The notes: generated from the sequence alone by a model not told the origin. Shown: positions 17,095 to 36,976, numbered from the stretch's first letter. The stretch: 64,000 nucleotides of DNA from an uncultured Planctomycetota bacterium (GCA_963840025.1 CAWIXI010000019.1:44485-108484), one strand, 5' to 3'. Numbers and translations are program-made.

Positions 17095-17404
17095 TGCCCC
17101 CGGGTCCCGGCCTCGGGGACAATGCAGCCGGTGGCACTTCCGCCGTGGGAAGCCCGCTTTCATCGTCGCAGCGGCCGGCCGCTGTTTGTTCGCCTTGCTG
17201 GCTTCGGGTAACCTTTAACCTTGTTGCGAGAGCCTTTATTCAACAATTGTCGGCGGGGTTCGTCCCGTGACAGGCGGTCAGGCAAAAGGTGCTATTTTTC
17301 TAAAAATAGTGCATTTTTTGGCACGAGCGGAGCCGGGCGACAAATCAGAATATGAGGCATCGTATACGAGTGTGACTGTGAAAAAGGAGCCCTCCATCGA
17401 TTTC

Positions 17405-17924
17405 ATGGACTTGTTTGTTGAGGACCAAGCGATGGTCTACGCCTTCGTGCGGAGCTTGGTCCCCAACTTTGCGGACGCGGAGGAGATCTTCCAACAGGTC
17501 GCGGTGACATTGTGGCGAAAAAGAGAGACGTATGATCCGGCGCGTAGGTACGTTTCGGGCTTGGGCAATCGGGATCGCCAGGAACCATATCCGCAATTTC
17601 AATCGGCATAAGGTCCGCGATCACCGGATACAGCTTTTCGCGCCGGATATTATGGAACGGATCGCGGAGAATTGGCAGGCGCTTGACGACAACTTGCGCG
17701 AACGGCAAGCGGTCTTGAAGTTGTGCATCGGCAAACTGGAACCATCGGATCGTCAGCGAATAGAGCGATTTTACGGCGGGGAGACGAGAGCAGCAGAAAT
17801 GGCCCAAACGGAAGGTATTCCGTTGCGCACCTTTTACCGCAAACTTCAAAAGATAAGGGAGTGTCTGCTCAATTGCATATCGAAAGCGATGGAAGCTAAA
17901 GGGGGTGTCAATGGACCGTACTGA
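17405..17924 (+). pseudogene. ECF-type RNA polymerase sigma-70 factor (Rhodopirellula/Verrucomicrobium-type), one frame break
   Basis: MDLFVEDQAMVYAFVRSLVPNFADAEEIFQQVAVTLWRKRETYDP is in the frame of ORF 17267..17611. GTFRAWAIGIARNHIRNFNR...LEPSDRQRIERFYGGETRAAEMAQTEGIPLRTFYRKLQKIRECL (region 4 HTH) is in ORF 17532..17924. The break lies near 17550. Confidence 0.85.
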
Positions 17925-19459
17925 TCAATCACCGGAAGCTCACGATTCTTGCGATTTGCGAGATTTCGTGAGCGTCGTGGCAACGATGCTCGACAGCGGA
18001 CAGCTAGCTCCGGAGCTATTCGATCGATTGGAGAGAACGCTTCGAGATGACGATGTCGCCATGCGTCAATACCTGGCGTTGTTAGACCTCGATGCCCACT
18101 TGCGGTGGGCGTATCGTGGCGGGATGCAACCGCAGGCTATTGCGGTACACGACTTGGAGGCCTCCGGCAGCAATCCGGTGGAGATCGGATCGGAACCGGC
18201 TGGAAACGGGGCGGCCGAAACGGAATCCAAGGTCGTGAGTTCGCGCATCGGAGACCAGCTGCCCGATCGGGCTCGTTGGTTGCCGCAGCCGATTGGCCTC
18301 GCTCTGCGCGACGGCTTCCGTCGGCACCGAGTTGCATCGTTGGCTGTTGCAGGCTCACTCGCAGCGGTGGCAACTATTGGATTGTTGCTCGCCGCTTGGT
18401 CGAGTTGGGGTGGCGTCGGAAGAATTACCCAGTCCGCGACCGCCCAGTGGGCGGCGCCACATGCTTTGCTCACGACCGGCATGTCCGTTGATCCGGGGAA
18501 ATACTATTTGCTGGGCGGCGTTGCCGAGATCACGCTCGCGCGATAACACGCGATTGATTGTCGAGGGGCCGTCATTGCTGGAGATTGTCTCGGCAAATGA
18601 GGCGCTCGTCAAAAAGGGAACAGTTTCCGTATTCGTGGGACCTCGGGCTTCGGGGTACACGGTTCATACTCCAGATGCGCAGTCGCCGATTTGGGGACGG
18701 CATTTCAGGTGCGGGTTGCCGATCGTGGTACCGAAGTACACGTCATCGACGGAGCCGTCGTCGCACACGGAACGCACCACGCCGCTGACAGAAAGGACGA
18801 CAGCCTACTCTACCTCACGGAACGAGAAGCGATCCGGTTTAACCGGGATGATGGAAGAATTGATGCGATCAATTTTGTGGGTGAGCAACTGAAGCTTCAC
18901 GGGAACAGCGGAACCAGCTCGCTGAGCGCGATCCCCATGGCAGTAACAGGCGACATCCGGTGTCTGGACCATCCCCCAAATTCGGTTGTCGTCGGGGATT
19001 TCGAGCATGACGGCCAAATGTACCTGTTCTTGGAGCAGAGTGATATTTCGGTCGGCCCGACGATCTATGCGGACCGGAATTCTTTCGGAGAAATCGCCAA
19101 GGTGCAGGGAAATATCAACATGAAGATTCCCGCCGGTGCGCGGGTTAACAGTTACCTGCTGCATTTTGACCCGACGACGAAGCGTAGTAACGATCGTCTG
19201 CATCGCGTTTCGGGCACGATCACGTTCCGTTCGCCAATCATCGGCGTGTATTTCGACAGCGGTCGGTTTGTACGCATCGGATAAGCAGTTCAAGAGCAAC
19301 GAAACTCGATACACGCGGGAGAAGGGTGTCGCACCGAGGGGATTGGAAAACCGCGATTTCGTGTCCTTCAGTCCTGATCATAGGACTCTGATCGTCAATC
19401 TCCAAGCAAATAAGACTGCTGACCAAATCCGCATTATCACCAAGAGCGAGCATCCCTGA
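17905..19459 (+). pseudogene. FecR-like anti-sigma factor with extended C-terminal domain, three frame breaks
   Basis: It overlaps the sigma-factor stop (ATG 17911). The N-terminal anti-sigma region and a TM helix (LAVAGSLAAVATIGLLLAAW) are in ORF 17905..18546. DNTRLIVEGPSLLEIV...TVHTPDAQ is in the frame of ORF 18293..18892. VADLGTAFQVRVADRGTEVHVIDG (FecR signature) is in ORF 18691..19284. The tail GLYASDKQF...[12 protein letters not shown] is in ORF 19136..19459. Breaks lie near 18535, 18680 and 19264. Confidence 0.8.
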
Positions 19460-19535
19460 CGGCACGGCATCGAGCGTGCCTTACAAGGGGAGACATCGCC
19501 AACGGGATCACGCCACATCTCGTGAGGGCAATCGT

Positions 19536-20536
19536 ATGCAGGCGAAATGGCGAGGCGTCAAGGCGTTTACGCTGATTGAACTGCTCGTGGTTATTGCCAT
19601 TATCGGCATTTTGGTGGCGCTCTTGCTGCCGGCAGTTCAAGCGGCGCGCGAGTCGGCGCGCCGGACGCAATGCACAAATCAGATTAGGCAGCTAGCCTCG
19701 GGGCGGCAAACTTCGAGTCCGCCAAAGGGCGTTTGCCCGGCGGTACGGGGTTTTCTGGAAGCCCGGACGACGACACAGGTACCTCCGGCGGACGACGCGG
19801 TGGAAGCTCGGGCCCGGCGTACTCGATCATCCCGCCCCATTACAATGGTCTAGGATGGATTGTAGAAATTCTACCGTACATCGAGCTCCAAGCGCTGAGC
19901 GACGTCTTTGCACCATTTCGTGATCTTGATTTCGATTCAAACGTGTATAAAAAACCGCCCGAGCTGTTGGAGGCGGTGAAGATTCAGCCCGACGGGTTTG
20001 TGTGCCCCTCCGATCCGACCGCGCGGGACCTGATCACGACGCAATATCAGTGGCCGAACATACCAGTGGCCACCACGAATTACCGCGGAGTGATGGGGTC
20101 GAATCAGATGGTCTCGGACACCCACAGCTTTCCGATCATTCTGCCCCTGCAAGAATTCTGCAACGATGGGCGGGCTCGCTGCAACGGCCTGATCTGGCGC
20201 ACCAGCGCTCAGTTTCCCGTAAGGCTTCGACAAGTCATCGATGGGACGAGCAAGACGATGATGGTTGGCGAAGACCTGCCTTCGCACGACTGGCACACCA
20301 TGTGGTCCTTTTCCAACGGTGACTCCAGCAGCACCTATGCCCCATTGAATTACACTCTGAACAATCCAGACCCAGAGCAATGGTGGGACATGCGGGGATT
20401 TCGCAGCCACCATCCTGGCGGTGCCAACTTTGCGATGGCCGATGGGTCGGTGCACTTCATCCAGGAAGACATTGATTTCGATTTGTACAAGGCACAGAGC
20501 ACCATCGCCCTACAGGAAGTACTGCCGGACAATTAG
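19536..20536 (+). pseudogene. DUF1559 / H-X9-DG protein with prepilin-type N-terminal cleavage/methylation domain, one frame break
   Basis: [54 protein letters not shown] is in ORF 19476..19853. [14 protein letters not shown]...GWIVEILPYIE...HHPGGANFAMADGSVHFI (H-x9-DG) is in ORF 19733..20536. The break lies near 19690-19700. Confidence 0.85.
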
Positions 20537-20608
20537 CTAGACTGGCCGCAGCCATCCTGTCGCCGGCTGCGAGTTGTGTTCTTGATTGCGATCAACTAAG
20601 GCTCAAAG

Positions 20609-21022
20609 ATGAAGAAATGGGTTGTCGCGCTTTGCGTTAGTGTCTCATTTGGTTTTTCGGGTTTGCTTGGTTGTGGATCGTCCGGGTTTTCGTCGACCGA
20701 GGGAGTCGTCACATTGGACGGCGAGCCCTTGGCGAACGCGACGGTCATGTTTCAATCGCCAAACATGCCGATGGCGACTGCCAAGACGAATCAGGACGGC
20801 AAGTACCGTGTCGAAACTGGCGGCACCAAGGGAATTAAGCCGGGGGAATACTCGGTCACTGTCGCGGCATATGCGAAAGGAAAGAATGGCGGCGAACGCG
20901 CACCGAATCTCATTATCCCCCAGCGATATCTTCAACCGGAGACTTCAGGTCTGAAGGCAGAAATCGGATCTGGGACGAACCGGGATGTCAATTTCGAGTT
21001 GGTTTCCACGCCGTCGAACTGA
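20609..21022 (+). CDS. small lipoprotein with carboxypeptidase-regulatory-like (transthyretin-like) domain; DUF1559 partner
   Basis: Intact 137-aa ORF with lipobox LLGC at the end of a signal peptide and [20 protein letters not shown]...[10 protein letters not shown]. It is a paralogue of 28525..28917 and 31648..32073. Confidence 0.75.
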
Positions 21023-21029
21023 GCATGCA

Positions 21030-22585
21030 ATGAATGCCTCGGGCCAATATTGCCGAAACGACCGTCCTTGCGAATCGCACCGAATCGTGCCGGCTTGGAA
21101 TTCAGTGATTGCGGCGCGTGTCGGTTTCGCGGTCGGCCTGTGCCTGTTTGCGTATCAGCCGGTGTTTGCCGCGGAGCAAGCCGGCCCGAGGCCGAACATT
21201 GTGTTCCTGATGACCGACGATCAGTGTTTCTATTCGCTAGGATGCTACGGCGTACGGGACGTGCAAACGCCCAATCTTGACCGATTGGCCGCGGACGGAG
21301 TGACGTTTGACAAGTATTATGTGACCACTGCTATTTGCATGGCCAGTCGTGCGACGGTCATGACAGGCCTAGTCGAGTATCGCACGGGTTGCAACTTCAC
21401 GCACGGTCCGTTGCTTCGCGAACACTGGAGCCGGTCGTACCCATTCCAACTGAGAAAGGCCGGCTATTTGACGGCATTCGCAGGCAAGTTCGGCTTTGAG
21501 GTTGCCGACAGTCCCCGGGGAACGGGCTCTCTGCCGAGCGAGGACTTTGATCACTGGGCTGGCGGTCCGGGACAGACGTCCTACAAAACCGCCGACAACC
21601 CGGCGCTGGCCAAGTATGCCGAGCAATTTCCTCACTCGACGTTGGCCTACGGTGCGTTCGGCAGCGATTTCATCCGCGATGCGGCGAAGCAGACATCGTC
21701 CCTTTTGCTTGTCCATCAGCTTCAAAGCCGCCCCATCGGCCAGCGACCCCGGACCCTCGCTTCGACGCGGTTTATGCGGGAAGCGTGTTCGCCAAGCCGG
21801 CCAACTTTGGCCGCCGAAACGGCGAACACTTTTCTCCGCAGAGTCGACAAGGCAGGCAGTACCAGCGCTTTGTGACGTGGCACTACAACGACGATTACAA
21901 CGGCGTCATGGCGACCTATTACCAGCAGGTCTACGGCGTCGATGTCGCGGTGGGAATGATTCGTCGTGCTCTGGAAGCGTCGGGCGCGGCGAAAAACACG
22001 GTGATCATATTCACGTCCGACAACGGATTTATGTGCGGTTCTCACGGGTATGGCTCGAAAGTGCTTCCTTATGAAGAGGCATCCCGCGTTCCGCTGATTG
22101 TCGTGGATCTTCGTAACTCGGAGAAGAACGTGGGGGGTCGTTGCGACGCTTTGTGCGGCAACGTCGACATAGCGCCCACCATTCTGGCCCTCGCGGGGAT
22201 CAAAGTGTCGGACGATTTGGATGGACAGAGCCTGTTGTCGCTAATCGACGATCCGACGTCATCGATTCATGAGTCGCTGCCGTTGATCAACGTGTGGGGG
22301 CCCGCGGCAGTTCATAGTCTGGCGGTCGTCACCAAGGACTGGAAGTACATCTACTGGCCGTACTCAGAGCGTGGTTTCGTCCCCTGTGAAGAACTATACA
22401 ACTTGGCGGACGATGCGCTGGAGCTTAAGGAACTTTCCCACGACCGGCGCTATGCCGACACCCTGCAACGGATGCACGCCATGTACGATCGAGAAGTGGA
22501 TCGGTGGAAGCAGATGACCGTTCACTACCACGGATATGAAAAGTACGGCACAGTTTTTGATCGTCGTTTGCGGTCGAGTGACTAG
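21030..22585 (+). pseudogene. Cys-type S1 sulfatase (C-M-A-S-R motif), two frame breaks
   Basis: [21 protein letters not shown]...[15 protein letters not shown] is in ORF 20985..21875. [12 protein letters not shown] is in the frame of ORF 21496..22074. [25 protein letters not shown]...IIFTSDNGFMCGSHG is in the frame of ORF 21785..22585. Breaks lie near 21690 and 21733 (C-run). Confidence 0.85.
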
Positions 22586-23135: not shown

Positions 23136-26100
23136 GTGAGGGCGGACATGCGATTCCTTGACTTGCGACTTGCGATTCTTCTCGGGTGCCTCCTGTTTGC
23201 GGCAAACAAGGCGGTGGCGCAGCCACTGATAGACGACAAATTTGACGACGGCGATGTGACCACCAACACCTTAGGCAACGGCTCGGGCTGGAATCGCCGG
23301 GGATTCGGCGGCAGCATCCTCACCGAATCCGGCGGCGTGCTCGACTTGAGCCTGAATAACAGTGCCAACGCAGGCGCACTGCTTTCGAAGGAGACGTTCA
23401 GTGCCAACGGCGCTCAAACCATGTACGGCGAATTCACGTTTACCGAGATGGTCCGTCCTGACGCTCGGCCGGAGCCTCCAACAACGCCGGCACGTCTCGG
23501 TGGTCGTCCGGGTTCTACGACAACAGTTCAGACCCCGACTCCGGACGGCTTTGACTCATTCGCGAACGCGGGCCAGCGATCGGGCTTGTATGTCTCCTTT
23601 AAAGTGCGCTCGGACGATTTCGGGATACCCATCAACGGTGATCAGGGGGCTTTGTATTACACTACGTATGACGGATCGACGTTTACGCCAAACTTGTTGG
23701 CGAGCTGGACCTGGGACCGCTCGGTTTTTCAATTATGCGGAGGATGAGCTCGCAGCCGGCTTGCGGAGCGATCGCGTCCCGCAGGACCTGATCGTTTCTG
23801 ATCTTCGGGCAGAACTCGGGGCAAATTCGACGGGCTATAGCCTCAAATTCTTCTCCAGTGACGATAGCGCCGTCCTGCCGGCAGACATTTCCGGTACTTG
23901 GGCCGACGCCGGGATCACGGACCTGTCGGCCTTGGACGTCGGTTCGCGCCGACGGATTTGATGGACAAAATGGACAAAACACAGATATCAAGATCGACCG
24001 CATCTACGTCGATGATGCGCCTCAGCGCGACGCCGACTACTCAGGCCAGCTGTTCACCTGGGGCCAGCGCACAAACAATAGCGGCAATTGGAGCGACACC
24101 GATGCCTGGAAGAAGGGCGGTGTCGATACGACAAGCCATCCGATCGTAGTCACGGCGGTTCGCAGCCGCCGATGCGGCGGAAGTGGTCGGCGGCACGGTC
24201 CACGTCAATGCCGACCAAGGGGCCTGGACGCTGCAAATCGACAACGGCGCCACGGCCAATATCGCCAGCGGCAAAACGCTCGAGATCATTGAAAACGAGT
24301 CCAATAGTGCCACGAATATCCTGGGCGGCGGCAATTTGGTGCTCGGCGGAACTCTCATCACGCCCACGATCGGCGGCGCCGGCAACGTCTCGTTTGCGAA
24401 CGGAACCTTGCGCGTTGATCACGGGTCGTTCGCGTCGCTGACCACTTCCAGCGACGCCACGGTGTCCAACGCCAGCGAAGTGAGCGTTGGACAAGCAACC
24501 CTCGGCGCAGGCGACACGCTGTTCAAGCAACGAGGCCGGGACGCTCATTCTGAGCCAGTCCGGCGGGGCCAACAGCTTGGCAGCCACTTCGGCGATCGAC
24601 GTGCAGAAGGGCACCGTCGCCGGCGTGAACGATGCGACCCACAACGCGTTCAGCTCGGCGAGCATCAGTCTCAACGGCGGCAATCTGACGCTCAGCGCCA
24701 GTGCGGGTAGTTCCGCGGCCTTCGACTCGGCGATTGCAGCCAACGAGTCGGGTGAGATCCACGCCGCGCAGGTGACCGGTGGGTTGGCCGGCCAAACCGT
24801 GACGCTCGGCGGTACCAAGAGCTTCACCATTGCGACCGACAAAACGGTTATCCTGCGGACTTTGGACGGCTACACCATGAACGTGGCGGGCCCCGCGTCT
24901 GGCGACGGCACACTCAGCATCGGCGACGGCGCCAAGGTCAACCTCACCGGGTCGGTGACGACCAAATACGTCGGTTTCAGAGGAGATATTAGCAACGTCG
25001 GTGTTGGAGGCGGCGTCGTGCCCGGCGAAGCGTTCCGATTCGTACCCGTCGCAACGACACCCGACATGAATGCGACCTTCGCGATGGGAGGCGGCGCCGG
25101 TGTGGTTCTCGAAGGCGAGGTGAACGGCTCGCTCAGGCTGTCTAACAGCTCGAATAGTTACACGGGCACCACGAGGATCTTGCGCAGGCGCTGATTCCCG
25201 ATTCCGCCCTACCCGGCGACTACAACGGTGATTCAGTCGTCAACTCGTCCGATTACGACGCCTGGAAAGCGAGCTTTGGCAGTTCCGTGGCCCCAGGGTC
25301 GGGTGCCGATGGCAACGGCAACGGCGTCGTGGACGCCGCCGATTACACCGTCTGGCGTGACCATCAGGGCAATTCCGGCGGCGGGAGCGGCTTGCCAGCG
25401 GCTTCTTTGCTGCAGTTCGAGGGCGGCGGCGTAACTGAAGTCGCGGTCCTGCAAACCAGTCACGATTTTGCGCGAAATATCGGTACCGCGGCGGGGGAGG
25501 TGAACTGGGTCGCGCGGGCGGCTTTGCCGCGGCGGGAGGCGGCACGGTGAATGTCACCCTCGAGGGGGTGCCGGCCTGGTTTGGGATAGCGCCACGGCTG
25601 GCTTCAACGGTCAAAACTTGAAGTTCGGATCCGGAACGGCCAATGGCCGAGTGGTGTTGACCAACAACATCGATTTGAACAACGCCCAGCGGTTTATCCA
25701 ACTTACCGACAACCCGGATGTAGATACGGACGTCGCCGAGATTTCCGGGGTGATATCTACCTCGACGGGCACGGACGATAACCTCACCATCCGCGGACAG
25801 GCGGATTTCCCAGTGGCAGGCTTACTAGTTTTGTCGGGTCACAACACCTTCCATACGCTGCAGATCGGCGAAAATACGGTGCAGGCCGTCGATAGCGTGG
25901 GTCTGCCATCCACGGCAAACCTGGTGTTGCGGGCCAGCACGACGAGCAGTTTGCCGGCGGTCTTCGCCACCAGCAACGCCGCCAACGGGCACGCGTTTAA
26001 TCGCAACATTGGCGCCGGCGCTGGTGAGGTACAGTGGGGCGCGAATGGGGCTGGCGGTTTCGCGGCCGTCGGTGGCGATTTGACCGTGACGCTCGAAGGA

Positions 26101-27207
26101 GGGGCCGATCTGACATGGGCCGACCCCGACACCGGCTTCAACGGCGCATCCTCAATCGTTCAACTCGGTTCCAACGTGGCCACCGGCGTGACGACGTTTA
26201 CCAACAACGTTTCTGCTAGCAACACCGTCGAGTATTTTGAAACCTTCGACAATCCACTGTCGAACGCCGACCGTGTGGTCATATCCGGCAATTACACGGG
26301 TGCAAGTAACTTCCGTGTTGACGGTGACGGCGTGGTGGAATTGAACGGCAATATAAGCATGAGCAACAACTTGGTCCTGGTGGACAATCCGTTTGACGGC
26401 GTCCTGAATGCTCAGATCAACGGAACCATGCTCGTTGGCAATAACATGAGCCTTGACATCTCTGGTGCTCGCGCCTTTGTCAACGGGACGGCTTCGGTGG
26501 ATAACCTACTCCAAGACCGAGTTGGCAACACGCTCGGCGGCAGCGGGACAATTAAGATGATCGACGACGAAGACACCGGCGGCGGCAGCCAGCAGGCCCA
26601 AATTCAGGGCACGCTCAACCCCGGTTCCGATTTCGACAAAGTTGGCAAGCTGACGTTCGACCTCACCGCCTCGCCGAACGACCCCAGCGCCGGCGAAGTT
26701 CGGTTCCAAAATGGCTCCTTCTACGAGATGGAGTTTGAAAACGATGGCGGGGTAAAGCATGACACGACTGACATCAAGTGCACCAACCAGATCGGTTTGA
26801 TTCAGTTGGGCCTCGCCACCGACGAAACGTGGAATCTCGTGCTCGACGCCCTCGATGACATGACAGGGCTGGTCAGCGGGTCTGATGAGTTTGACCTGCT
26901 GACCTGGGACGGCAACAATGATTTCGCAATTAACGGTACGGTCGAAGGCGCTAGCACGTCTGGATTGGTCGACAACGTCGTGCTCAGTTCCACTGGTGGG
27001 TTCGACGTGAACAGCGCAACAGTCCATTTTGAGGTTGCGGGTGATTTTTCCGGCCGCGTGTATGTTACCGGATTGGCTGCCGCTAGTGGCGCCGGTGCGT
27101 TGGCCGGAGGGCAGGTTCCGGAACCGGCAGGCTGCATGTTGGCAGTGGTTGCGGCAGTTGCGGTTCTGGTGGGGAGCCGCCGCTACGGAAGGCTCCTCGA
27201 AGCCTGA
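23136..27207 (+). pseudogene. giant (~1350 aa) secreted surface protein: LamG-like N-terminus, autotransporter-associated beta-strand (PATR) repeats, internal dockerin-like segment, PEP-CTERM anchor; about seven frame breaks
   Basis: The signal peptide MRFLDLRLAILLGCLLFAANKAVAQ is in ORF 23136..23747. Further fragments come from ORFs 23362..23961, 23858..24292, 24183..24710, 24487..25194 (...SNSYTGTTRI), 25287..25550 (GDYNGDSVVNSSDYDAWKASFG...DGNGNGVVDAADYTVWRDHQG) and 25618..27207. The last ends QVPEPAGCMLAVVAAVAVLVGSRRYGRLLEA. Frame changes lie near 23715, 23945, 24160, 24530, 25180, 25512 and 25566. Confidence 0.7.
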
Positions 27208-27368
27208 GATCGTGAGTCGGCAGCGGTTGGCTCGGGGGCGGTCGAAAGACGCATGGGGCAGCGCCCGAGCCAGTCGCGCCGGCTGCACGAAGCTGTCGCG
27301 ACCGGCGCGAATGGGGAACAGAGCGAGTTGTACCGGTTGATGACAGCTTGACGGCTGAGGGAGCGGTG

Positions 27369-28525
27369 ATGAAACGCAATTCGCTCACGGTTCGGGCTCC
27401 ACGTCGCTCATGCGGTTTCACGCTTATTGAGTTGTTGGTGGTGATCGCCATCATCGGCATCCTGGTCGCCTTGCTGCTGCCTGCGGTGCAGTCGGCGCGA
27501 GAAGCGGCACGCAGGACCCAGTGCGCGAACCAACTGCGGCAACTGGCGTTGGGATGCCTGACCTTCGAGTCGTCCCGCAAGTATCTCCCGCCCATCGCGG
27601 TCATGCGCCCCGGCATGAAGCCCTCGGAAAGTCATGCGGGCTACGACTTGATGTCGGAGGAAATCCTGGTCCGGAACGCCGAGAATAAGCGCGGCCACAG
27701 TTGGATCGTCGAGATTCTTCCTCAGATTGAAGAGCAGGGCCTCGCCGATCGCTACGACAAGACGGTCAGCCCGCTGCAGAACATTGTGGATAACCATTTC
27801 GAGATCGTGGACATTCCCGGACTCTATTGCCCGTCGCGGCGGCGGGGGGTCGAGTCACCGGATCAGCAATACATGCTGCTGACGTTCCAGGGGCCCGAAG
27901 AAGGGCCAAATCCTTTGTCCCAACTCAATCTGCCGCCTGTCGGCGGGACGGACTATGGGGCGGTGATCGGCGCCGGGAATTGCTACGACAATTTGGGTTA
28001 CAAGGGAATGTTCCTCGGGTACATCTGCGTGGGCGTAACCGGTGCGGCTGCGGGGCCGATGATGCCTGATCAGGAAGGAAGGGGAGCCAAGTTAAAGGCC
28101 ATCATCGACGGAGCGAGTCATACCATTCTGCTCGGCGAATTGCAGCGGCTTTGGGCCTCCAGCGACGACCCGCGTTTTCCTGGCAACGGGCGCGACGGGT
28201 ACCCCTCGGCGCGGAGTGTGGATGGCTGGCTCTTCGGCGGCAGCCCGACGAGTTTCGATGGTCAGATCTCCGTTACTTCGGACCTTGAAGAAAACCGATA
28301 TTTGGCCGGCGGCGTGAACTCGTGGTTCTTTGAGCACGCCGGCAGCGAGCACCCGGGCGGCGCCAATTCGCGTTCACTGATGGGTCGATACGCTTCCTCA
28401 GCGAGAATGCGGACCCACTGATCCTGATGGCGGAAACGACGCGAGGGGGTGGCGAATTGGAGGCCGGCGACCTTACAGCAACGCTCAGTTCGCTGTTCAC
28501 CACCGTAACGGGAGGGCGGCGATAG
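27369..28525 (+). pseudogene. DUF1559 / H-X9-DG pseudopilin-like protein, array copy 1, one frame break near the C-terminus
   Basis: [52 protein letters not shown]...[13 protein letters not shown]...EHPGGAN is in ORF 27348..28421. After a missing T near 28366-28372 the tail reads [31 protein letters not shown]...GGRR and stops at 28523-28525. Confidence 0.85.
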
Positions 28526-28917
28526 TGAATCGTCTCTGCGGTTGCTCGGCGATCCTGGCCGCTTGTCTAGTGGCTGGCGGCTGCAGCAAATCCGGCGACC
28601 GGCCGGACCTTGGCGAAGTCACCGGCGTGGTAACCCTCGATGGAGAGCCATTGGCGAATGCGAGTATCTCGTTTACCGAACCAGGCTTCCGTTCCTCTGT
28701 CGGCAAAACCGACAGTGAGGGACGGTATGAACTGATATACATCCGCGACATCAAGGGCGCCGCGGTCGGGACGCACACCGTAAGGATCAAGTGTTTCGCG
28801 GAACCAGGGCAGCACGTTAAACAAGTCCCAAGGAAATACAATGACGAGTCGGAGCTCACCCAAGAGGTGAAACCCGGCCAAAATGTCATCAATTTCAATT
28901 TGAAATCGAATTCGTGA
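28525..28917 (+). CDS. small lipoprotein with carboxypeptidase-regulatory-like domain; DUF1559 partner
   Basis: Intact 130-aa ORF. Its GTG start overlaps the upstream TAG by 1 nt. It has a signal peptide ending LVAGGC and [48 protein letters not shown]. Confidence 0.75.
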
Positions 28918-29048
28918 TGTCCGGGCCTGCTTTCGGGAATAATCGGTTCCAAGGACAGGGAGATGATATGATGTTTCAGCACCGTGGGGAGCTAATACAT
29001 CGGCAAGGCAATCGATGCTTCGCCGAATTGCCAACGGGTTATTGTTGT

Positions 29049-29160
29049 CCGTTCAGCGGTGAGGAGATGGCAAAAATGACCAGACTGCGAAATCCTCGAA
29101 GTGGCGGCGGTTTCACGCTTATTGAGCTGTTGGTGGTGATCGCCATCATCGGCATCTTGG
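29049..29160 (+). repeat. near-identical 112-nt duplicated segment (leader + 5' coding region of DUF1559 copies 2 and 3), copy A
   Basis: CCGTTCAGCGGTGAGGAGATGGCAAAAATGACCAGACTGCGAAATCCTCG...CATCGGCATCTTGG matches 30451..30562 with 2 mismatches (manual alignment). Weaker similarity extends about 30 nt upstream and through the whole gene. Confidence 0.8.
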
Positions 29161-30245
29161 TGGCCTTGCTGCTGCCGGCTGTGCAAGCGGCGCGCGAAGC
29201 GGCACGCAGAACCCAGTGCGCAAATCAGCTGCGGCAACTCGCGTTGGCGTGCATGAACTTCGAGTCGGGCCACAAGTACTTCCCGCCCTTCGCCGTGATG
29301 GGTTTCGGTTTAGGTTCCTAGCCACCGCCCGGAACACCCGAACTGCTGGCCGAGATGGTGTCCGTCGACCAAGAGGGGCGGCGTGGCCACAGCTGGATCG
29401 TCGAGATTCTCCCGGAGATGGAACATCAGGCCCTCGCCGACCGGTACGACAAAAGGTTCAGCCCGCTGCACAATATTATGCGGAACAACTTCGTGATCAC
29501 CGATCTCCCCGAGCTCTATTGCCCGTCGCGGCGGTCATCCGTCGAGACGCCGCAACAACAGTACATGCTGATGACCGTCGAGGCGCCCGACAAGAGTTCA
29601 GACCCCCTTACGAAGCTGAATATCGTGGTCGGCGGCACCGACTACGGGGCGGCGGTCGCCGCGGGGAACTGTTACGCCAATCAGGCTAAGACAAGCTTCC
29701 ACTTCGGGCGTAATAGCGTCGGGAATGGTGGTTTGGCGGCGAGCCCGATGACGCCGCTCGGGCCGGGCAATGGGGCGAGCATAAACAAAATTACCGACGG
29801 CACGAGCGAGACGTTGCTGCTCGGTGAGCTGCAAAGGATCTGGGCGGAAAAGAGACGACCCCCGTTTCTCGGGCGGGTCTGGTCCCGCGGGCTTCATTGC
29901 CGGGCGCAGTAGTGACGGTTGGGTCTTTGGCGGCGGCGGGACAACTTTTGGTGCCGAGGTATCGACCGTGATTAGTGGTCTTGGCGAAGAGAGATCCACA
30001 GCGGGTGGCCTCAACAGTTGGTTCTGGGAGCACGCGGGCAGTGAGCACCCGGGCGGTGCCCATCTCGCTTATGCGGATGGCTCGGTCCACTTCGTCAGCG
30101 AGAACCTGGACCCATTGATCTTGATGGCACAGGCGTCGCGCCCGGGGGCGAAGTTGTCTCCGGTGATTCGTCTGCTGGCCTTGAGAATGCCATCCAAGCG
30201 CTGTTCACACCCCCGAGCAGTGATCCAACTGGAGGGCGACGGTGA
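29067..30245 (+). pseudogene. DUF1559 / H-X9-DG pseudopilin-like protein, array copy 2: in-frame TAG plus two frame breaks; downstream lipoprotein gene missing
   Basis: [51 protein letters not shown] is followed by an in-frame TAG at 29319-29321 that separates ORF 28914..29321 from ORF 29355..29912, both in the same frame. Breaks lie near 29845 and at the G-run 30144-30148. The corrected tail EHPGGAHLAYADGSVHFVSENLDPLILMAQASRPGGEVVSG...TGGRR stops at 30243-30245. Confidence 0.8.
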
Positions 30246-30450
30246 TCTTGGCGAAAGTTCGATGGTGGTTGGTTGAAGTAGCGGACGCTTGGCGCAGCCT
30301 GTCCGGCTGGCTGCTAGATAGTGTCCGTGGACGGTTCGGTGCATATCATTTGCATAGGACGTGGCTGAGGCGATCTTCCGTAATTTTGGGCAATGGACAC
30401 AACGGCCAGTCGATCGATTCTTCGGCGAATTGCCAATGGGTCAATGTTAT

Positions 30451-30562
30451 CCGTTCAGCGGTGAGGAGATGGCAAAAATGACCAGACTGCGAAATCCTCG
30501 GAGCGGCGGCGGTTTCACGCTTATTGAGCTGTTGGTGGTGATCGCCATCATCGGCATCTTGG
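30451..30562 (+). repeat. near-identical 112-nt duplicated segment, copy B
   Basis: See 29049..29160: 110 of 112 nt are identical by manual alignment. Confidence 0.8.
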
Positions 30563-31648
30563 TTGCCTTGCTGCTGCCGGCGGTGCAGGCGGCAGCGCGA
30601 AGCCGCCCGCCGCTCCCAGTGCTCGAATCAGCTTCGACAGCTGGCATTAGGGTGCCTAAACTTCGAATCGGCCCACAAATACCTCCCGCCCGTGATGGTG
30701 ATGGACGCCGATTTCAATCTTAACGGGAAGACACCGGGCCACGGCTTGAAGAAAGAGATGATGACCTTGGACCAAGAGGGCAAGCGTGGCCACAGTTGGA
30801 TCGTCGAAATACTTCCTCAGATCGAGCAGCAGGGCCTCGCCGATCGCTACGACAAGAAGTTCAGCCCGTTGCACAACATTATGCGGAACAACTTCGAGAT
30901 CGTGGATATCCCTGGACTCTATTGCCCGTCGCGGCGGCACGGGGTCGAAACACCGGAGCAGCAATATATGTTGCTGACTTTCCGCGGGCCCGGCCAAGAC
31001 AACGACGACCTCGCGAAACTTAATATTACGGTCGGCGGAACCGATTACGGGGCGGCGATTGCCGCGGGGAATTGCGAGGGAAACACAAGCAAGGATCCCC
31101 TGATCGGATACGCGTGTGTCGGCGTGACCGGCGCTGCGGCAAGTCCGATGACTCCCCTTCGCCGGGGCGAAGGGTCAAGCCTGGCAAAGGTAACCGATGG
31201 GACGAGCCATACTCTTATGCTGGGGGAGCTGCAGAGGATTTGGGCGGCGGACGATGACCCCCGCTTCGCCGGCCAGAGCGGAGACGCGGGGGTTGTCTCG
31301 GGACGCAGTGATGATGGTTGGGTCTTCGGTGGGTCAACGACGATGTTCACGACGTCGGTCACAACGACGATCGACGGTGTTGGCGATACGAGAGACTCGC
31401 CCGGCGGCCTCAATGACTGGTTTTTCGAGCACCCTGGCAGCGACCACGTAGGAGGGGCCCATCTCGCTTACGCGGATGGCTCGGTTCACTTCGTCAGTGA
31501 GAACGTCGACCCGCTGATTTTGATGGCGGAAACGACGCGAGCCGGTGGCGAACTGGCGTCCGACGAGGGGGCCGTGGGGAACATCGCGGTCGATCTCGAA
31601 GCGTTGTTCACGCCCCCGAGTGATGGTCCAGGTGGAGGGCGACGCTAG
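30469..31648 (+). pseudogene. DUF1559 / H-X9-DG pseudopilin-like protein, array copy 3, one frame break
   Basis: [42 protein letters not shown] is in ORF 30361..30723. [25 protein letters not shown]...[13 protein letters not shown]...[38 protein letters not shown]...GGGRR is in ORF 30563..31648. An extra G lies near 30594. Confidence 0.85.
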
Positions 31649-32073
31649 TGGGTGCCGCGAAGAACAGCCGCGGTTGGCGACATTGCTGCGTCGCATTGGT
31701 GGTATTCGCCGGCTGTCTGACCGTCGGCGGTTGCCGTACCGGCGCGGGCGACAGGCCGGACCTCGGCGAAGTCACTGGCGTGGTAACTCTCGATGGCGCG
31801 CCACTCCCGGATGCGAGCGTTTCATTCACCCAGCCTGGTTTCCGCTCGTCCGTCGGCAAGACTGACAGCCAAGGACGGTACGAACTGATTTACATCCGCG
31901 ACGTCAAAGGCGCCGCCGTCGGGACGCACGTCGTAAAGATCAAATTATTTAAGCAGAATGGGGGACAAGCGGACCAGCTACTTCCGAGCCGGTACAACTC
32001 CAAATCGGAACTCTCCCGAGAAGTCAAGCCCGGCCCAAACGTGTTCAACTTCGATCTAAAATCAAGTCCCTGA
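31648..32073 (+). CDS. small lipoprotein with carboxypeptidase-regulatory-like domain; DUF1559 partner
   Basis: Intact 141-aa ORF. Its GTG start overlaps the upstream TAG by 1 nt. It has a signal peptide ending LTVGGC and [48 protein letters not shown]. Confidence 0.75.
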
Positions 32074-33235
32074 TGGCGGAGCACCACGGCACAACGACAC
32101 TTTGCGGGGAAGCGATGAAAGAGTGCAATTCCGATCGATTTCGAGATACCGGCCGTCGTGGTTTCACGTTGATCGAGCTGTTGGTGGTAATCGCCATCAT
32201 TGGCATTCTCGTGGCGCTGCTATTACCTGCTGTCCAAGCCGCACGCGAGGCGGCCCGTCGCGCTCAATGTAAAAACAATCTCAAACAGCTCGGCATCGGT
32301 GCTTTAAATCACGAAAGCGCCTTCAAATTTTTGCCCACGGGCGGGTGGGGTTGGAAGTGGACAGGCGATCCCGACCGGGGCTATGGCTTGGATCAACCCG
32401 GCGGATGGTACTACAACATTTTGAAGTTCATTGAGGAAGGACCCATCCGTGACTTGGGCAAGGACGGCCAACCAGATGTGCTGACCCAACAGCAGATTGA
32501 CGGCACCTACGAAGCAGTCCAAACGGGAGTCAGTTGGTTTATGTGCCCGAGCCGTCGCGGCGCGGCGGTCTATCCTTTGGATCCGGCGACAGGCGGTTAT
32601 CTCACGGTGGGCAACAAAAAGCCGCCCGTCGTCGGGCGGAACGATTACGCTGCGAACACCGGCGACCGGTACAATGCAAGCACCTTGGCCAATACGGGAC
32701 CGGGCCTCCAAGGGAATCAGATTGTTAATCCCGACATCAGCAATTACGGCGCTAACCAGCGCACTTTGACGCGCCAGGACTCGGAAGAACGGCGGGTGTC
32801 GAAGGGGGTACGGGTGTGGTTCATGCATTTAGTATCATTAAGCTGGCACAAATCACCGACGGCGCATCGCACACGATTTTTGCCGGCGAGAAGTATATTC
32901 CTGCAGACAAGTACGACACCGGGTATGGCGATTTGAACCAGGGCAACGATCAGGGCTGGGATGAAGGCTGGGACATTGACAACTGTCGATGGACATTTCT
33001 CGCGCCTCGTCCCGATTCGTTTCGTTGGGTCGACGCAAGTGGCAACGACATCCCCGACACCAACAGCGACGGCTGGCTCAGATACCGTGCGTTTGGCTCG
33101 GCCCACCCCACTGGTTGCCAATTCGTGTTTGTCGATGGATCGGTGCATACCATTTCCTATGACGTGGACGAAGTTTTGTTCAAAAATCTGGGAAATCGAC
33201 AAGACGGCGAGCCGATTAACGATTCCGATTTGTAA
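32073..33235 (+). pseudogene. DUF1559 / H-X9-DG pseudopilin-like protein, array copy 4 (divergent paralogue), one frame break
   Basis: ATG 32073 overlaps the upstream TGA by 1 nt (alternative start ATG 32115). [47 protein letters not shown] is in ORF 32073..32936. [28 protein letters not shown]...AHPTGCQFVFVDGSVHTI (H-x9-DG) is in ORF 32816..33235. The break lies near 32775-32810. Confidence 0.8.
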
Positions 33236-33312
33236 GCACCTGGTTTCGAGGGCCGCCGTCACGCTCCGCGAGTTGGGTTGGTCAGTCCGATCGCACATAC
33301 GTTAGGGCAACT

Positions 33313-34008
33313 ATGGCGACAAGACGGCAGTTCTTAGAGACCGGGGCGTTTTGTCTCGCGGCGGGATTTATTACGCGGGTGGCATCGGCAGATGAGTCCA
33401 CCGGGTTGCCAAGGGCATTGCTGCTCGGCGATTCCATCTCGATCGGCTACACAGACTTCGTGATCGGAATGTTGTGGGGAAAGGTGTCGGTTGCCCGGCC
33501 CTTGAACCCCAAAGGCAACTACGAGAATTGTGAAGGAACCACCAAGGGCATCGCCAAGATCGATGATTGGCTTGGCAACGGCGACTGGGATGTGATCCAT
33601 TTCAATTTCGGGCTCCACGATTTGAAGCATGTGGATGGGAAAACAGGCAGAAATAGCAGGAATCCTCAGGACCCTCAGCAAGCGACTTTAGACCAATACG
33701 AAAAGAATTTGCAGCAGATCGTAGCCAAGCTGGTCGCCACGAAGGCCAAGTTGATCTTTGCTACCACGACCCCTTTCCTCGCCAACCCCGGCGGACCGTG
33801 GCGTGACGCCGATCAGCCGCAGAAATACAACGAGGTTGCGATCCCAATCATGAAGCGCAACGGAGTCGCAATCGATGATCTGTATGGTTTCGCGCTGCCC
33901 CATATCAATGAGTTCTTCCCGCGTGGAGATGTGCATCCAACCAAAGCCGGTAGTCGGGAGCTTGCACAGCAGGTGGTTGCACATATTCGAACGGCACTCC
34001 AACTATGA
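33313..34008 (+). CDS. TAT-exported SGNH/GDSL hydrolase (carbohydrate esterase-like)
   Basis: Intact 231-aa ORF with twin-arginine signal MATRRQFLETGAF...ASA, LLLGDSISIGY (block I GDS), FNFGLHD, and GDVHPTKAGSRELAQQV (D-x-x-H). Confidence 0.8.
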   Translation: MATRRQFLETGAFCLAAGFITRVASADESTGLPRALLLGDSISIGYTDFVIGMLWGKVSVARPLNPKGNYENCEGTTKGIAKIDDWLGNGDWDVIHFNFGLHDLKHVDGKTGRNSRNPQDPQQATLDQYEKNLQQIVAKLVATKAKLIFATTTPFLANPGGPWRDADQPQKYNEVAIPIMKRNGVAIDDLYGFALPHINEFFPRGDVHPTKAGSRELAQQVVAHIRTALQL

Positions 34009-35138
34009 ATTTTCCTGCTGCAACGAGCGTACCATCGAGCTTTCAGCCAAGGGAAGCGATTTTTCCGGGGGACGATGACCTTGATGAATTTTTATCCGTG
34101 AATGCACCAGACCATTTGACCGTCCCGCCAGGTTTGCGAATTGCACGTCTGCTCCTCGTAATCGTCTTGGTCCATGCGCAACTCGGCCTTGCGGCCGAGC
34201 CGGCTGCGACAGGCGGCCGCGAGGACCTCACGTGGACCGACCCGAACCAGGCCGCCGCTGATGATCCTGATTTTCTCGTCCAGGGAGATTATGGCGACGA
34301 TCGCCCAAGCGCGGCATGGGGGCTCCAGGTGGTTGCGCTGGGAGGCGGCCAGTTCGATGCTTATCTGTTGGAGGGAGGGTTGCCTGGCGCCGGGTGGACT
34401 CGCCAGAAGAAGCGAATCAAACTGAGCGGCACTCTCCAAAACGGCATCGTCAAACTCGACTCGCCGGATGCGGCGTACGCGGCAACTATTCAAGACCATG
34501 CAGCGAAGGTTTTTGAAAAGGGTCGACTCCTCGTCGACTTGCCGAAGATTGAGCGCAAGAGTCCCACCTTGGGCACCGCGCCGCCTGAAGGCGCCGTGGT
34601 GCTCTTCGACGGGACCTCTGCCGATGCCTGGATCAATGGGCGCATGGCGAATGGTCTACTCGTCAACGATGACATCACGAGCAAGCAAACCTTCGGCGAC
34701 TTCTCGCTGCATCTCGAATTTCGCACGCCGTTCAAGCCATACGCACGCGGGCAGCGTCGTGGAAATAGCGGCGTTTACCTTCAGGGTCGTTACGAGGCTC
34801 AAGTGCTCGATTCGTTCGGCTTGGATGGCCGCAAGAACGAATGTGGTGGGATTTATTCAATCGCAGCTCCCGAAGTGAACGCCTGCTTCCCACCACTCAG
34901 CTGGCAGACTTACGACATTGACTTTACCGCCGCGCGGTTCGGCGGCGGTGGAAAGCTTCTTCACCCTGCGCAAATGACCGTGCGGCTCAACGGTGTTCTC
35001 GTGCAGAACGAGCAACCGCTGCCGCATACGACGACAGCTGCTCCGGTGAAGACGATCACGCCGGATCCAGGGCCGATTTTCATTCAACACCACCGCAACA
35101 TCGTTTATTATCGCAATATTTGGGTTGTGCCGAAGTGA
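34005..35138 (+). CDS. DUF1080 (3-keto-disaccharide hydrolase family) domain protein
   Basis: Intact 377-aa ORF whose ATG overlaps the upstream stop (ATGA). The C-terminal half has FGDFSLHLEFRTP...GNSGVYLQGRYEAQVLDSFG...ECGGIYSIAAP...WQTYDIDFTAARF...MTVRLNGVLVQNE...GPIFIQHHRNIVYYRNIWVVP, typical of DUF1080. Confidence 0.8.
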   Translation: MNFPAATSVPSSFQPREAIFPGDDDLDEFLSVNAPDHLTVPPGLRIARLLLVIVLVHAQLGLAAEPAATGGREDLTWTDPNQAAADDPDFLVQGDYGDDRPSAAWGLQVVALGGGQFDAYLLEGGLPGAGWTRQKKRIKLSGTLQNGIVKLDSPDAAYAATIQDHAAKVFEKGRLLVDLPKIERKSPTLGTAPPEGAVVLFDGTSADAWINGRMANGLLVNDDITSKQTFGDFSLHLEFRTPFKPYARGQRRGNSGVYLQGRYEAQVLDSFGLDGRKNECGGIYSIAAPEVNACFPPLSWQTYDIDFTAARFGGGGKLLHPAQMTVRLNGVLVQNEQPLPHTTTAAPVKTITPDPGPIFIQHHRNIVYYRNIWVVPK

Positions 35139-35218
35139 GACGCGATTGCTCGCGGACTTAAACGGCTTCTTCGTCGCCGGACTCGCGGCAAGCCACAAAA
35201 AGACGTACGAGGTAACCA

Positions 35219-36976
35219 TTGACTTTCTCGAACTTCCACCGATGTCTCCGGTCTGCAACGCCAGCACGACTTGCTCATCAACTGGTGCTGCTCACCTTTG
35301 CGCTAGGGCTATTGGCGGTCCGCGCGACCACGGCGGCGGAGCCCACGACTCCGACGAACGTGCTGCTGATTATGACCGACAATCAGGGCTACTTTGAGCT
35401 GGGCTGCAAAGGCGACCCATACTTGAAAACGCCTAACATCGACGACTTTGCGAAAGAAAGTGTCGATCTTTGCAACTTTCACGCCGAGAACTTCTGTTCT
35501 CCAAGTCGCGCAGCATTGCTCACCGGCCGGCAACCCATGCGATACGGCGTTCACGATACAATCGGCGGCGTTTCGCTTCTCGCAGCGAATGAGGTCACGA
35601 TTGCTGACCGGATGCGAGCTGCCGGGTACAAAACCGGGATCTTTGGGAAGTGGCATCTCGGCATGTCGTACCCGTTTCACCCCATGTACCGCGGCTTTGA
35701 TGAAGTCTTCATCAATGGTGGCGGCGGCATCGGGCAGCTGGAGGATTACCTTGGCAACAACCACATGAATGCACATTTCCAGCACAACGGGAAGTGGGTG
35801 CCGACGACCGGGTATTCGAGCGATGTACTCTTCGATCGTGCAGCGCAGTTTATTAAGTCGTGCGGAGATCAAGCATTCTTTTGTTACATTCCGACCCCCG
35901 CCGTTCACTTTCCCGTGCAGGCTGAACCCGTGGCGCTCGCCCGAATTCGCAAGCGCGGAGTCACGCCCAAGGAAGCCAGCCTGAGTCTGCTTTCAATGAT
36001 TGAAAACATCGACGACAACGTCGGACGATTGCTGAGAAAGCTCGACGAATGGAACTTGAGCGACAACACGCTGGTAATCTTCATGAGTGATCAGGGTGTT
36101 GGAGATGAGGGCTCGCCGAAACCGGTCTGGCCGGGCAAGGGCAGAAAGGACGTGGGCAATGCCGGCGAGGGCAAGCATCGCGTGTTCTGCATGATGCGTA
36201 AACCGGGGCTCACCGTCGCCGGCGAAAACCAGGCGCTGGTCTGCATCCGGGACGTGTGTCCAACGATCTTCGACGTCTGCGGTCTTGAAATCCCCGACAA
36301 TTTGGACGGTCGCAGCTTAGTGCCAATTCTCAAGGGCAACGCAGACTGGCAGGACGAGCGGGCGATCGTCATGCAATGTCCGCGAAATCGGAAACGCACC
36401 AAGTGGCGCAATGCCGTGGTCAAACAAGGTGATTGGCGATTGATCAACGGCGATCGGCTGTACGACATCGCCAGTGACTCGCTCGAAGAAAGAAACGTGG
36501 CCGCACTACACCCGGACGTGGTCGCCCGCCTGAACGCCGTCTACGACAAATTCTGGAATAGCCTTCCGCCCGAGGAAGAATTGCTTAACCGGCACATCCT
36601 GGGAGCGCCGGAATGTCCGACCACACAGCTGTGCGCAATGGATTGGTACAAAGGAGACGCACCTTGGACACAGGGACCGATCACCGCCAAACGCAGCCAG
36701 GGAGCGTGGGCCGTTCAGGTTCAGCGAGGCGGGCGATATCGATTTGAGCTGCGGCTCGCCCGAAAAGAAACCCCCGTACCGATTGGTGCAACGTCTGCAC
36801 GCATTCGCGTCGGACAGGTGGAAGCAGAGGCGCCGATGAAGCCCCAAGACGACGTGGCAATTCTCGAAGTTGATCTCCAGCCCGGAGAGTATGACCTCGA
36901 GACGTGGTTTCAGGGGACGGATGGCCGATCGTGGGGCGCCTTGTTCCTTGATGTGAAGTACGAATCCCGGTCTTAA
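35219..36976 (+). CDS. Cys-type S1 arylsulfatase with C-terminal beta-sandwich extension
   Basis: Intact 585-aa ORF with signal peptide, TNVLLIMTDNQGYFELGCKGDPYLKTPNIDDFA, ENFCSPSRAALLTGRQP, GKWHLG and FMSDQG. Confidence 0.9.
   Translation: MTFSNFHRCLRSATPARLAHQLVLLTFALGLLAVRATTAAEPTTPTNVLLIMTDNQGYFELGCKGDPYLKTPNIDDFAKESVDLCNFHAENFCSPSRAALLTGRQPMRYGVHDTIGGVSLLAANEVTIADRMRAAGYKTGIFGKWHLGMSYPFHPMYRGFDEVFINGGGGIGQLEDYLGNNHMNAHFQHNGKWVPTTGYSSDVLFDRAAQFIKSCGDQAFFCYIPTPAVHFPVQAEPVALARIRKRGVTPKEASLSLLSMIENIDDNVGRLLRKLDEWNLSDNTLVIFMSDQGVGDEGSPKPVWPGKGRKDVGNAGEGKHRVFCMMRKPGLTVAGENQALVCIRDVCPTIFDVCGLEIPDNLDGRSLVPILKGNADWQDERAIVMQCPRNRKRTKWRNAVVKQGDWRLINGDRLYDIASDSLEERNVAALHPDVVARLNAVYDKFWNSLPPEEELLNRHILGAPECPTTQLCAMDWYKGDAPWTQGPITAKRSQGAWAVQVQRGGRYRFELRLARKETPVPIGATSARIRVGQVEAEAPMKPQDDVAILEVDLQPGEYDLETWFQGTDGRSWGALFLDVKYESRS

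Follow-up and report, generated by a model that had tools for sequence, protein, structure and literature searches.

The stretch of DNA analysed here, which we call the window, comprises 64,000 nucleotides (nt) from an uncultured Planctomycetota bacterium (GCA_963840025.1 CAWIXI010000019.1:44485-108484). It carries five DUF1559/H-X9-DG prepilin-type genes on the + strand, with starts at 19536, 27369, 29067, 30469 and 32073, three of which are followed by a gene for a small lipoprotein. No paralogous family of planctomycete genomes is larger than DUF1559, for which a function has yet to be demonstrated in any member. As regards the anatomy of the system, our confidence is high: the five are modular proteins resembling type IV pilins or pseudopilins, and three of them come with a cognate beta-sandwich lipoprotein. 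The genes are listed below, together with the frame corrections that are dealt with further on.

19536..20536, + strand: DUF1559 gene A, ~333 amino acids (aa) after restoring a G missing after 19696; PF07596 E 9e-28, TIGR04294 E 1e-11
20609..21022, + strand: lipoprotein A, 137 aa; lipobox LLGC; PF13620 32.1 bits
27369..28525, + strand: DUF1559 copy 1, 385 aa after restoring a base missing after 28363; PF07596 E 4e-31, PF07963
28525..28917, + strand: lipoprotein 1, 130 aa; lipobox AGGC and the core motif of the family; weak PF13620 match
29067..30255, + strand: DUF1559 copy 2, ~392 aa; extra base at 29852, base missing after 30141, in-frame TAG at 29319-29321; no lipoprotein gene next to it
30469..31648, + strand: DUF1559 copy 3, 392 aa after removing an extra base near 30593; PF07596 E 7e-44, TIGR04294
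31648..32073, + strand: lipoprotein 3, 141 aa; overlap of its TGA stop with the start codon (ATG) of copy 4; 168 homologues
32073..33235, + strand: DUF1559 copy 4, ~387 aa after restoring a base missing after 32763; PF07596 on both halves, TIGR04294

DUF1559 genes and lipoprotein genes in the window

All five genes or their fragments matched PF07596 (DUF1559) in Pfam with 34.8-151.3 bits (E 1e-12 to 7e-44), the gathering score being 23.3 bits, and all five display a prepilin-type signal with cleavage at G|F and a glutamate at position +5. PF07963 was matched at 35.6-37 bits (cut-off 21.2) and TIGR02532 at 29.5 (cut-off 16.3). The H-X9-DG model TIGR04294 recognised copy 3 (28.4 bits), copy 4 (32.2 bits) and gene A (44 bits) above its cut-off of 19, and inspection revealed corresponding ends in copy 2 (HPGGAHLAYADG) and in the frame-corrected copy 1 (HPGGAQFAFTDG). 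Copies 1-3 have the LYCPSRR block and one further sequence block in common. The paralogues, their starts, the signals, the shared blocks and the H-X9-DG ends had already been pointed out in a sequence-only reading of the same stretch, and all of them are indeed present.

Across 106 homologues, G-1, F+1 and E+5 are almost invariant, as are L and V of the signal. Altogether, 22 positions are invariant in this set, including two cysteines, several Arg, Asp and Glu residues and the histidine of H-X9-DG, which suggests a core site that the homologues have in common. The five genes belong fully to this family and are ordinary representatives of it. The family itself is known but uncharacterised, and 68-74 paralogues per genome have been reported (PMC10632474, PMC2754498); P. 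limnophila has 68 copies, two of them essential on laboratory medium (PMC10632474). The best partial NCBIfam matches of the DUF1559 N-terminus are GspG and GspH of type II secretion systems (T2SS). The GspG model TIGR01710 reached 36.2 bits over residues 16-61 only, i.e., the shared N-terminal helix, and missed its equivalog threshold of 88.85. No prepilin peptidase gene was found within the window. At the protein level, copies 1-3 are 60-70% identical to each other; gene A and copy 4 show 37-44% identity to any other of the DUF1559 genes compared (37-42% in the case of copy 4), copy 4 being a diverged paralogue whose orthologue in locus L128 is 64-69% identical.

The lipoprotein genes sit behind gene A, copy 1 and copy 3, and encode proteins of 130-141 aa with a common core, as described before. 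A “fixed pairing”, as proposed in the sequence-only reading, does not apply, since copies 2 and 4 have no lipoprotein gene. From the layout of the genes we predict with high confidence that the three pairs are co-transcribed and that two of them are translationally coupled: the TAG of the DUF1559 gene and the GTG of the lipoprotein gene overlap as TAGTG at 28523-28527 and at 31646-31650. The earlier suggestion of translational coupling falls away for the third pair, in which gene A and lipoprotein A are separated by a gap of 72 nt. Lipoproteins 1 and 3 are 66% identical, and lipoprotein A is 33-38% identical to either; judged by these protein identities, the DUF1559 and lipoprotein partners in the window diverge in step.

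Within the lipoprotein family, G28 and C29 of the lipobox are invariant in 51 aligned members, and 106 of 132 short representatives display a lipobox-like motif. The family is large (13,849 cluster representatives at E <= 1e-10), and neither Pfam nor NCBIfam holds a dedicated model for it; PF13620 scored the three proteins of the window with 21.4, 23.1 and 32.1 bits, all under the cut-off of 32.3. A remnant lipoprotein gene after copy 2 was considered and rejected: local alignment of the stretch 30200-30468 to the three lipoprotein genes did not exceed the scores of shuffled sequence, and only the C-terminal tail of DUF1559 aligned. The lipoprotein type of domain was also met in P0278 (870 aa), a fusion of an extracytoplasmic function (ECF) sigma factor with an anti-sigma-like portion, transmembrane and periplasmic, at the end of which there are two such beta-sandwich domains. 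This architecture hints at ligand sensing and at a domain that can be the outward-facing part of a regulator.

Copies 2 and 3 are almost indistinguishable at their 5' ends.

29003..29185, + strand: homogenised 5' leader and N-terminal coding stretch of copy 2; counterpart at 30405-30587 of copy 3; contains the 112-nt stretch described next

In an ungapped alignment, 29050-29161 and 30452-30563 are identical at 110 of 112 positions, the very numbers given in the sequence-only reading, which had left a recent duplication and gene conversion side by side. Sliding identity at the nucleotide level reaches 88-97% only in an interval that begins some 45 nt before the ATG and extends to about codon 32; elsewhere it is 42-85%. 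Because the similarity is confined to the 5' ends, the remainder of the two proteins is 70% identical and the array is conserved in other genomes, local gene conversion is the better reading of this tract, and a recent duplication of the whole gene is not.

Every DUF1559 frame is interrupted in the window, a point absent from the sequence-only reading. Searches by tblastn with intact relatives placed 1-nt frame switches at about 19696, 28363, 29852, 30141, 30593 and 32763, of which that of gene A was mapped to 19694-19697 and that of copy 3 to 30594-30614. Overlapping same-strand open reading frames (ORFs) occur window-wide, namely in sulfatases, the sigma and anti-sigma genes, a giant surface-type protein, genes of glycoside hydrolase (GH) families GH116 and GH95, and others. 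Five broken frames, one of them (copy 2) with an additional in-frame TAG, might be taken for a decaying pseudogene array. We compared the window with contigs assembled from independent metagenome runs on soil and salt marsh; identity to the window was 99% or higher for most of these contigs and 96-98% for a few. Short-read contigs repaired five of the six DUF1559 frameshifts: the G at 19696 is present in X1, X3 and X4, the base at 28363 in X1, X3 and X5, and that at 32763 in X1 and X5, while the sites 29852 and 30141 are repaired in X1 and X16 and in X4 and X8, respectively. Seven indels in unrelated neighbour genes were repaired likewise, including 17544 (extra base absent from four runs), 18537, 18680, 21692, 21728 and 22603, with sites seen in up to four runs. 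At 30593 the contigs were chimeric, as the N-terminal coding stretch is common to hundreds of paralogues.

Since the independent contigs lack the indels, the window, which lies on a contig of 112,931 bp, is most likely an unpolished, error-prone long-read assembly. The breaks, which affect many genes across the whole stretch, are most likely assembly errors, the DUF1559 genes being probably intact, and we rejected the pseudogene array, a highly improbable explanation, on this read evidence. The TAG at 29319-29321 reads TCG (Ser) in the 96%-identical X1 contig; the alternatives here are an erroneous substitution and a strain-specific nonsense mutation, in a copy that has no lipoprotein. ORF-based annotation of the window will under-call genes.

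The DUF1559-lipoprotein pair across genomes and its predicted structures

Adjacency of the two genes, a statistic that the sequence-only reading had proposed to collect, was counted in two samples of loci. With the lipoprotein as bait, 45 loci from species-representative genomes provided 48 assessable lipoprotein genes, of which 40 (83%) lie directly downstream of a same-strand DUF1559 gene. With DUF1559 as bait, 80 metagenome loci provided an independent sample of 71 assessable DUF1559 genes, and 25 of these (35%) are followed by a lipoprotein gene. The gap within the pairs has a median of 44 nt, 19 of 45 pairs overlapping or being separated by 10 nt or less. The identities of the partners correlate, with a Mantel r of 0.72 that none of 999 permutations equalled. 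These sequence comparisons support the DUF1559 gene and the lipoprotein gene as a genuine conserved two-gene unit. Our literature search found no paper mentioning the pairing, and the DUF1559 papers that it did find contained no functional work; the pairing is apparently new.

A fusion of both proteins of the Rosetta-stone kind was found neither among 120 DUF1559 homologues nor among 150 representatives of the lipoprotein family; long candidate “fusions” turned out to be upstream PEP-CTERM genes run together with DUF1559. About one sixth of the lipoprotein homologues are not located behind DUF1559, e.g., L006:8151-9974, L011:4177-6021 and L015:2945-4360. Two of the unpaired genes come after a conserved gene pair (~610 aa and ~430-460 aa), and one after an apparent MacB/FtsX-type permease.

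For the soluble part of copy 3 (30596-31645), AlphaFold2 returned a model with a predicted local distance difference test score (pLDDT) of 93.2 and a predicted template modelling score (pTM) of 0.92, revealing a long helix at the N-terminus and an alpha/beta head with a small sheet at its centre and ordered loops of considerable extent. In each of the five proteins, the globular domain comprises about 330 aa. Foldseek found nothing comparable to this model in the PDB (best E 4.4, template modelling (TM) score < 0.1, namely 0.09), and sequence and profile searches against the PDB matched only the alpha-1 helix of pilins and GspG. Based on the model, the globular domain may represent a novel fold or else a pilin fold with heavy elaboration, and the invariant Cys9 and Cys110 may form a disulfide. 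The lack of a PDB-like fold in DUF1559 appears to be a new observation.

The Pfam name of the family, SBP_bac_10, and older papers refer to solute-binding proteins (PMC2754498, PMC4807772). Together with the class III signal, this would fit a prepilin-anchored periplasmic binding protein that passes small sugars on to a transporter of the inner membrane, the lipoprotein having an accessory role. Because the model is confident and has no PDB match whatsoever, that of a binding protein included, and because the profile matches are restricted to pilin helices, the label is not supported by the predicted structure. Moreover, genes for ABC or other transporters are not a recurrent feature next to the pairs, and the conserved Glu+5 points to filament assembly, so that solute binding of this kind must be regarded as very unlikely. 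Two likely misreadings can thus be corrected, namely the “solute-binding” label and the apparent pseudogenes, which are most likely assembly errors.

For lipoprotein 3, the model (pLDDT 85) consists of a short tether and a single, probably transthyretin-like beta-sandwich of some 100 residues. Its best Foldseek matches were Bacteroides DUF3823 proteins, followed by transthyretin-like, CnaB and CBM20/CBM41 domains (probability up to 1.0, TM score ~0.4, E ~1e-4). None of eight proteins showed a Pfam match to SusC or SusD, and the models contained no TonB-dependent beta-barrel and no SusD/TPR-like fold. The sequence-only reading had suggested a functional analogue of SusC/D-type components; nothing resembling SusC or SusD was found, there is no channel component, and the likeness is one of position and perhaps of a binding role.

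The surrounding locus and the possible role of the pair

The window amounts to a single long run of co-directional degradative genes: it encodes 12 or more sulfatases, fucosidases of GH29 and GH95, and GH116, alongside esterases of the BD-FAE and GDSL types, a 3-keto-disaccharide hydrolase and a GFO/IDH oxidoreductase. Judged by its gene content, it looks like a locus for a sulfated fucose-rich polymer, and the placement of the array among sulfatases and glycoside hydrolases reported before is borne out. The following genes accompany the DUF1559 genes.

17267..17924, + strand: ECF sigma factor of the Rhodopirellula/Verrucomicrobium type; TIGR02989 on both halves (E 9e-12 and 2e-21); split by an extra base at 17544
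17905..19459, + strand: FecR-like anti-sigma factor; indels at 18537 and 18680; the syntenic genes of L002 and L128 carry PF04773 (FecR)
20985..22585, + strand: sulfatase; PF00884 and PF16347 on two halves; extra bases at 21692 and 21728
23136..27207, + strand: giant surface-type protein of ~1350 aa; fragmented; autotransporter-type beta-strand repeats (weak TIGR02601); PEP-CTERM-like C-terminus VPEPAGCMLAVVAAVAVLVGSRR
L003:3335-7408, L004:4612-8736, L005:4536-8726 and L128:4775-8775: the giant protein in relatives

Pfam returned no match on the anti-sigma fragments of the window, and a promoter and terminator scan of 17000-35500 gave counts at background. Orthologues of the giant protein (1338-1397 aa) are encoded at the corresponding place in L001-L005, with the DUF1559 array immediately downstream; the giant protein itself has no Pfam match and displays a dockerin-like DAADYTVWRD motif. 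The + strand cluster ends with a frameshifted IS3-family transposase (57250-58835), and genes for a sugar-nucleotide epimerase/dehydratase follow on the - strand.

The order of sigma factor, FecR, DUF1559, lipoprotein, sulfatase, giant protein, DUF1559 (+ lipoprotein) array, esterase/oxidoreductase and sulfatases recurs in two loci of a 7.5-Mb Bythopirellula metagenome-assembled genome (MAG), in another Bythopirellula MAG and in a 33-kb ENA contig. Among these relatives, the copy number and the choice of the copies that bear a lipoprotein vary. Because the gene order is kept at 55-69% protein identity, comparison of the loci indicates that the array is old and maintained. This bears on the view that the DUF1559 proteins are general structural subunits of the envelope or of a pilus, with no functional tie to the locus, present here through family size and tandem duplication. 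The number of paralogues per genome, the essentiality of two P. limnophila copies on laboratory medium and the heterogeneous neighbours of the pairs described below would agree with this view, but the same order, sigma/anti-sigma genes and sulfatases included, is retained by four or more loci from other genomes, which would hardly be expected unless linkage were under selection, and we consider such purely structural subunits unlikely.

Neighbours were surveyed two genes to each side of the pair in 51 loci, excluding close relatives of the window. Their families are scattered and include aconitase, the beta-lactamase fold, peptidases (M28 and M55), DUF2961, AraC and LacI regulators, GT2, MoxR ATPases, kinases and response regulators. 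Of 138 neighbours, one is a sulfatase, and no glycoside hydrolase family was present among the families listed. Within 10 kb, a sulfatase lies near 3 of the 25 DUF1559 genes that have a lipoprotein partner and near 3 of the 46 that have none. A family-wide tie of the pairs to glycan degradation is not supported, and enrichment near carbohydrate-active enzymes (CAZymes) or sulfatases, the check proposed in the sequence-only reading, is largely lacking; an ECF sigma/anti-sigma pair, sulfatases and a giant PEP-CTERM protein are found in synteny with the subfamily of the window only. Of the two-component polysaccharide module envisaged in that reading, the conserved and co-diverging two-gene unit and the occurrence of one subfamily in sulfatase-rich loci stand, and a dedication of the whole family to polysaccharides does not. 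A second conserved context, unrelated to glycans, was seen in four Pirellulales/Planctomycetaceae loci (L019, L022, L023 and L031), in which an aconitase gene lies upstream of the pair on the opposite strand.

PEP-CTERM proteins are encoded by 11 of 50 genes directly upstream of DUF1559 and by 16 of 786 other genes (odds ratio 13.6, p 7e-8), in a comparison that used a regular-expression motif and loci chosen for containing DUF1559, three related loci included. Examples are L013:149-850, L079:8923-9831, L040:7655-8677 and L038:7985-8635. The arrangement suggests a recurrent cassette of PEP-CTERM protein, DUF1559 and lipoprotein, and the link to PEP-CTERM appears to be new.

Being the only clearly enriched neighbour, the PEP-CTERM protein favours a different function, in which DUF1559 proteins would be specialised T2SS-like pseudopilins that act as cargo-specific secretion adaptors. 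Their heads, together with the lipoprotein, would bring in the proteins encoded next to them, to be exported across the outer membrane, and would not capture substrate; here, the cargo would be the giant PEP-CTERM protein and perhaps sulfatases and fucosidases. Adaptors explain the PEP-CTERM enrichment and the mixture of neighbours, among them families with exported hydrolases (beta-lactamase fold, M28, M55 and DUF2961), better than substrate capture does, and the partial matches to GspG and GspH point the same way. An invariant core across paralogues fits contact with a shared machine, and type II secretion has been reported to be up-regulated on fucoidan (PMC11685898). However, known T2SS pseudopilins are neither cargo-specific nor paired with lipoproteins, genes for secretin, GspE and GspF are not nearby, many pairs have no obvious exported neighbour, and the enrichment depends on the motif and the selection of loci just mentioned. 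On balance, we regard both the adaptor function and the cargo assigned to it as rather unlikely, if still a serious contender.

The reading that we put forward, tentatively and as something short of probable, is that the pseudopilin-lipoprotein module is used in this locus for the capture and hand-over of sulfated glycans, in a binding role like that of SusD/E/F and not as a SusC-type channel. After Sec export and cleavage, the DUF1559 protein would be held in the cytoplasmic membrane by its alpha-1 helix, and a type II secretion or type IV pilus-like machinery would add it to a short filament or to the tip of one, crossing the wide planctomycete periplasm, with the globular head forming a heterodimer with the lipoprotein encoded next to it. 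The ECF sigma/FecR pair would switch on the DUF1559 genes together with the sulfatases and fucosidases. The modules would then receive sulfated fucan from the giant PEP-CTERM protein at the surface and pass it to the periplasm, where the enzymes would act. Other substrates or cargo would be the business of different paralogue pairs encoded elsewhere in the genome.

Glycan capture is supported by the synteny of the locus and by the position behind the sigma/anti-sigma pair, and several reports form its background. Planctomycete pili-like fibres bind dextran (PMC5394234), and in a planctomycete grown on fucoidan, secretion-system proteins, including those of type II secretion, were induced (PMC11685898). 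Binding and uptake of whole polysaccharides by planctomycetes is an acknowledged open question, the players in uptake being still unidentified (PMC12673574). In Akkermansia, mucin uptake needs a pilin-related locus (PMC13174399), and modular pilins, fusions to PF13620 among them, are widespread (PMC8179133).

Several points weigh against glycan capture. Glycan binding, filament assembly and contact between the DUF1559 protein and the lipoprotein are all steps that we infer. Family-wide, the pairs are not located near CAZymes or sulfatases, and the glycan link comes from the synteny of one clade. The conservation of polar residues (C, R, D, E and H) in all paralogues suggests a common core function rather than diversified ligand binding, neither the window nor the listed neighbour families include pilus or T2SS machinery genes, and the fold matches of the lipoprotein are weak and generic, as is evident from the TM score and E-value given above. 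In a wider form of the capture reading, DUF1559-lipoprotein pairs, often with an upstream PEP-CTERM protein, would be the substrate-specific subunits of a planctomycete apparatus for polymer capture and uptake, i.e., the pili-like fibres of crateriform structures, with one polymer per pair and sulfated fucans in this case. We see this as a long shot; if true, it would amount to a Sus-independent “selfish” glycan uptake built on a type IV filament. The partner lipoprotein, the PEP-CTERM neighbour and the sulfatase-locus clade provide concrete, testable handles on the family.

Comparison with known systems

Modular pilins and minor pseudopilins, such as PilB of S. sanguinis, CofB of enterotoxigenic Escherichia coli with CofJ, TcpB of V. 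cholerae with TcpF, and GspK of the T2SS, resemble the DUF1559 proteins in having an alpha-1 helix with Glu+5, a bulky domain and an adjacent partner gene, and PF13620-type domains are found among the modules that pilins carry elsewhere (PMC8179133). In comparison, the DUF1559 head is unrelated to vWA, lectin or GspK alpha-domains, the partner is a lipoprotein and not a secreted protein, and the dozens of paralogues per genome are scattered away from pilus machinery genes. The Sus-like systems of Bacteroidota are similar in their position behind sigma/anti-sigma genes among degradative enzymes and in a small beta-sandwich lipoprotein, for which the best PDB matches are the DUF3823 proteins of Bacteroides. 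Here, however, a pilin helix serves as the anchor, a TonB-dependent barrel and a SusD fold are missing, and the family as a whole is not associated with CAZymes.

The bindosome of Sulfolobus consists of sugar-binding proteins with class III signal peptides and many paralogues, its subunits being true ABC-type binding proteins. The likeness lies in the prepilin-type signal on envelope proteins that handle a substrate; DUF1559 differs in that its model shows no such fold. In the mucin utilization locus (MUL) of Akkermansia, with its pilin-like Amuc_1102 and PilM-like Amuc_1101, a bacterium of the Planctomycetes-Verrucomicrobia-Chlamydiae (PVC) group needs pilus-related envelope proteins for the uptake of complex glycans (Davey et al. 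2023, as cited in PMC13174399). Going by its description, the MUL stands apart from the present system: the proteins are apparently unrelated, Amuc_1102 resembles an archaeal-type pilin, and there is no pairing with a lipoprotein.

Compared with the DUF1559/H-X9-DG family itself, which is defined by the same signal, PF07596, H-X9-DG and a typical multi-copy tandem arrangement, the genes of the window show no difference. What our analysis adds to the picture of this family is a cognate lipoprotein, the co-divergence of the partners, a link to PEP-CTERM proteins and a confident structural model without a PDB-like fold.

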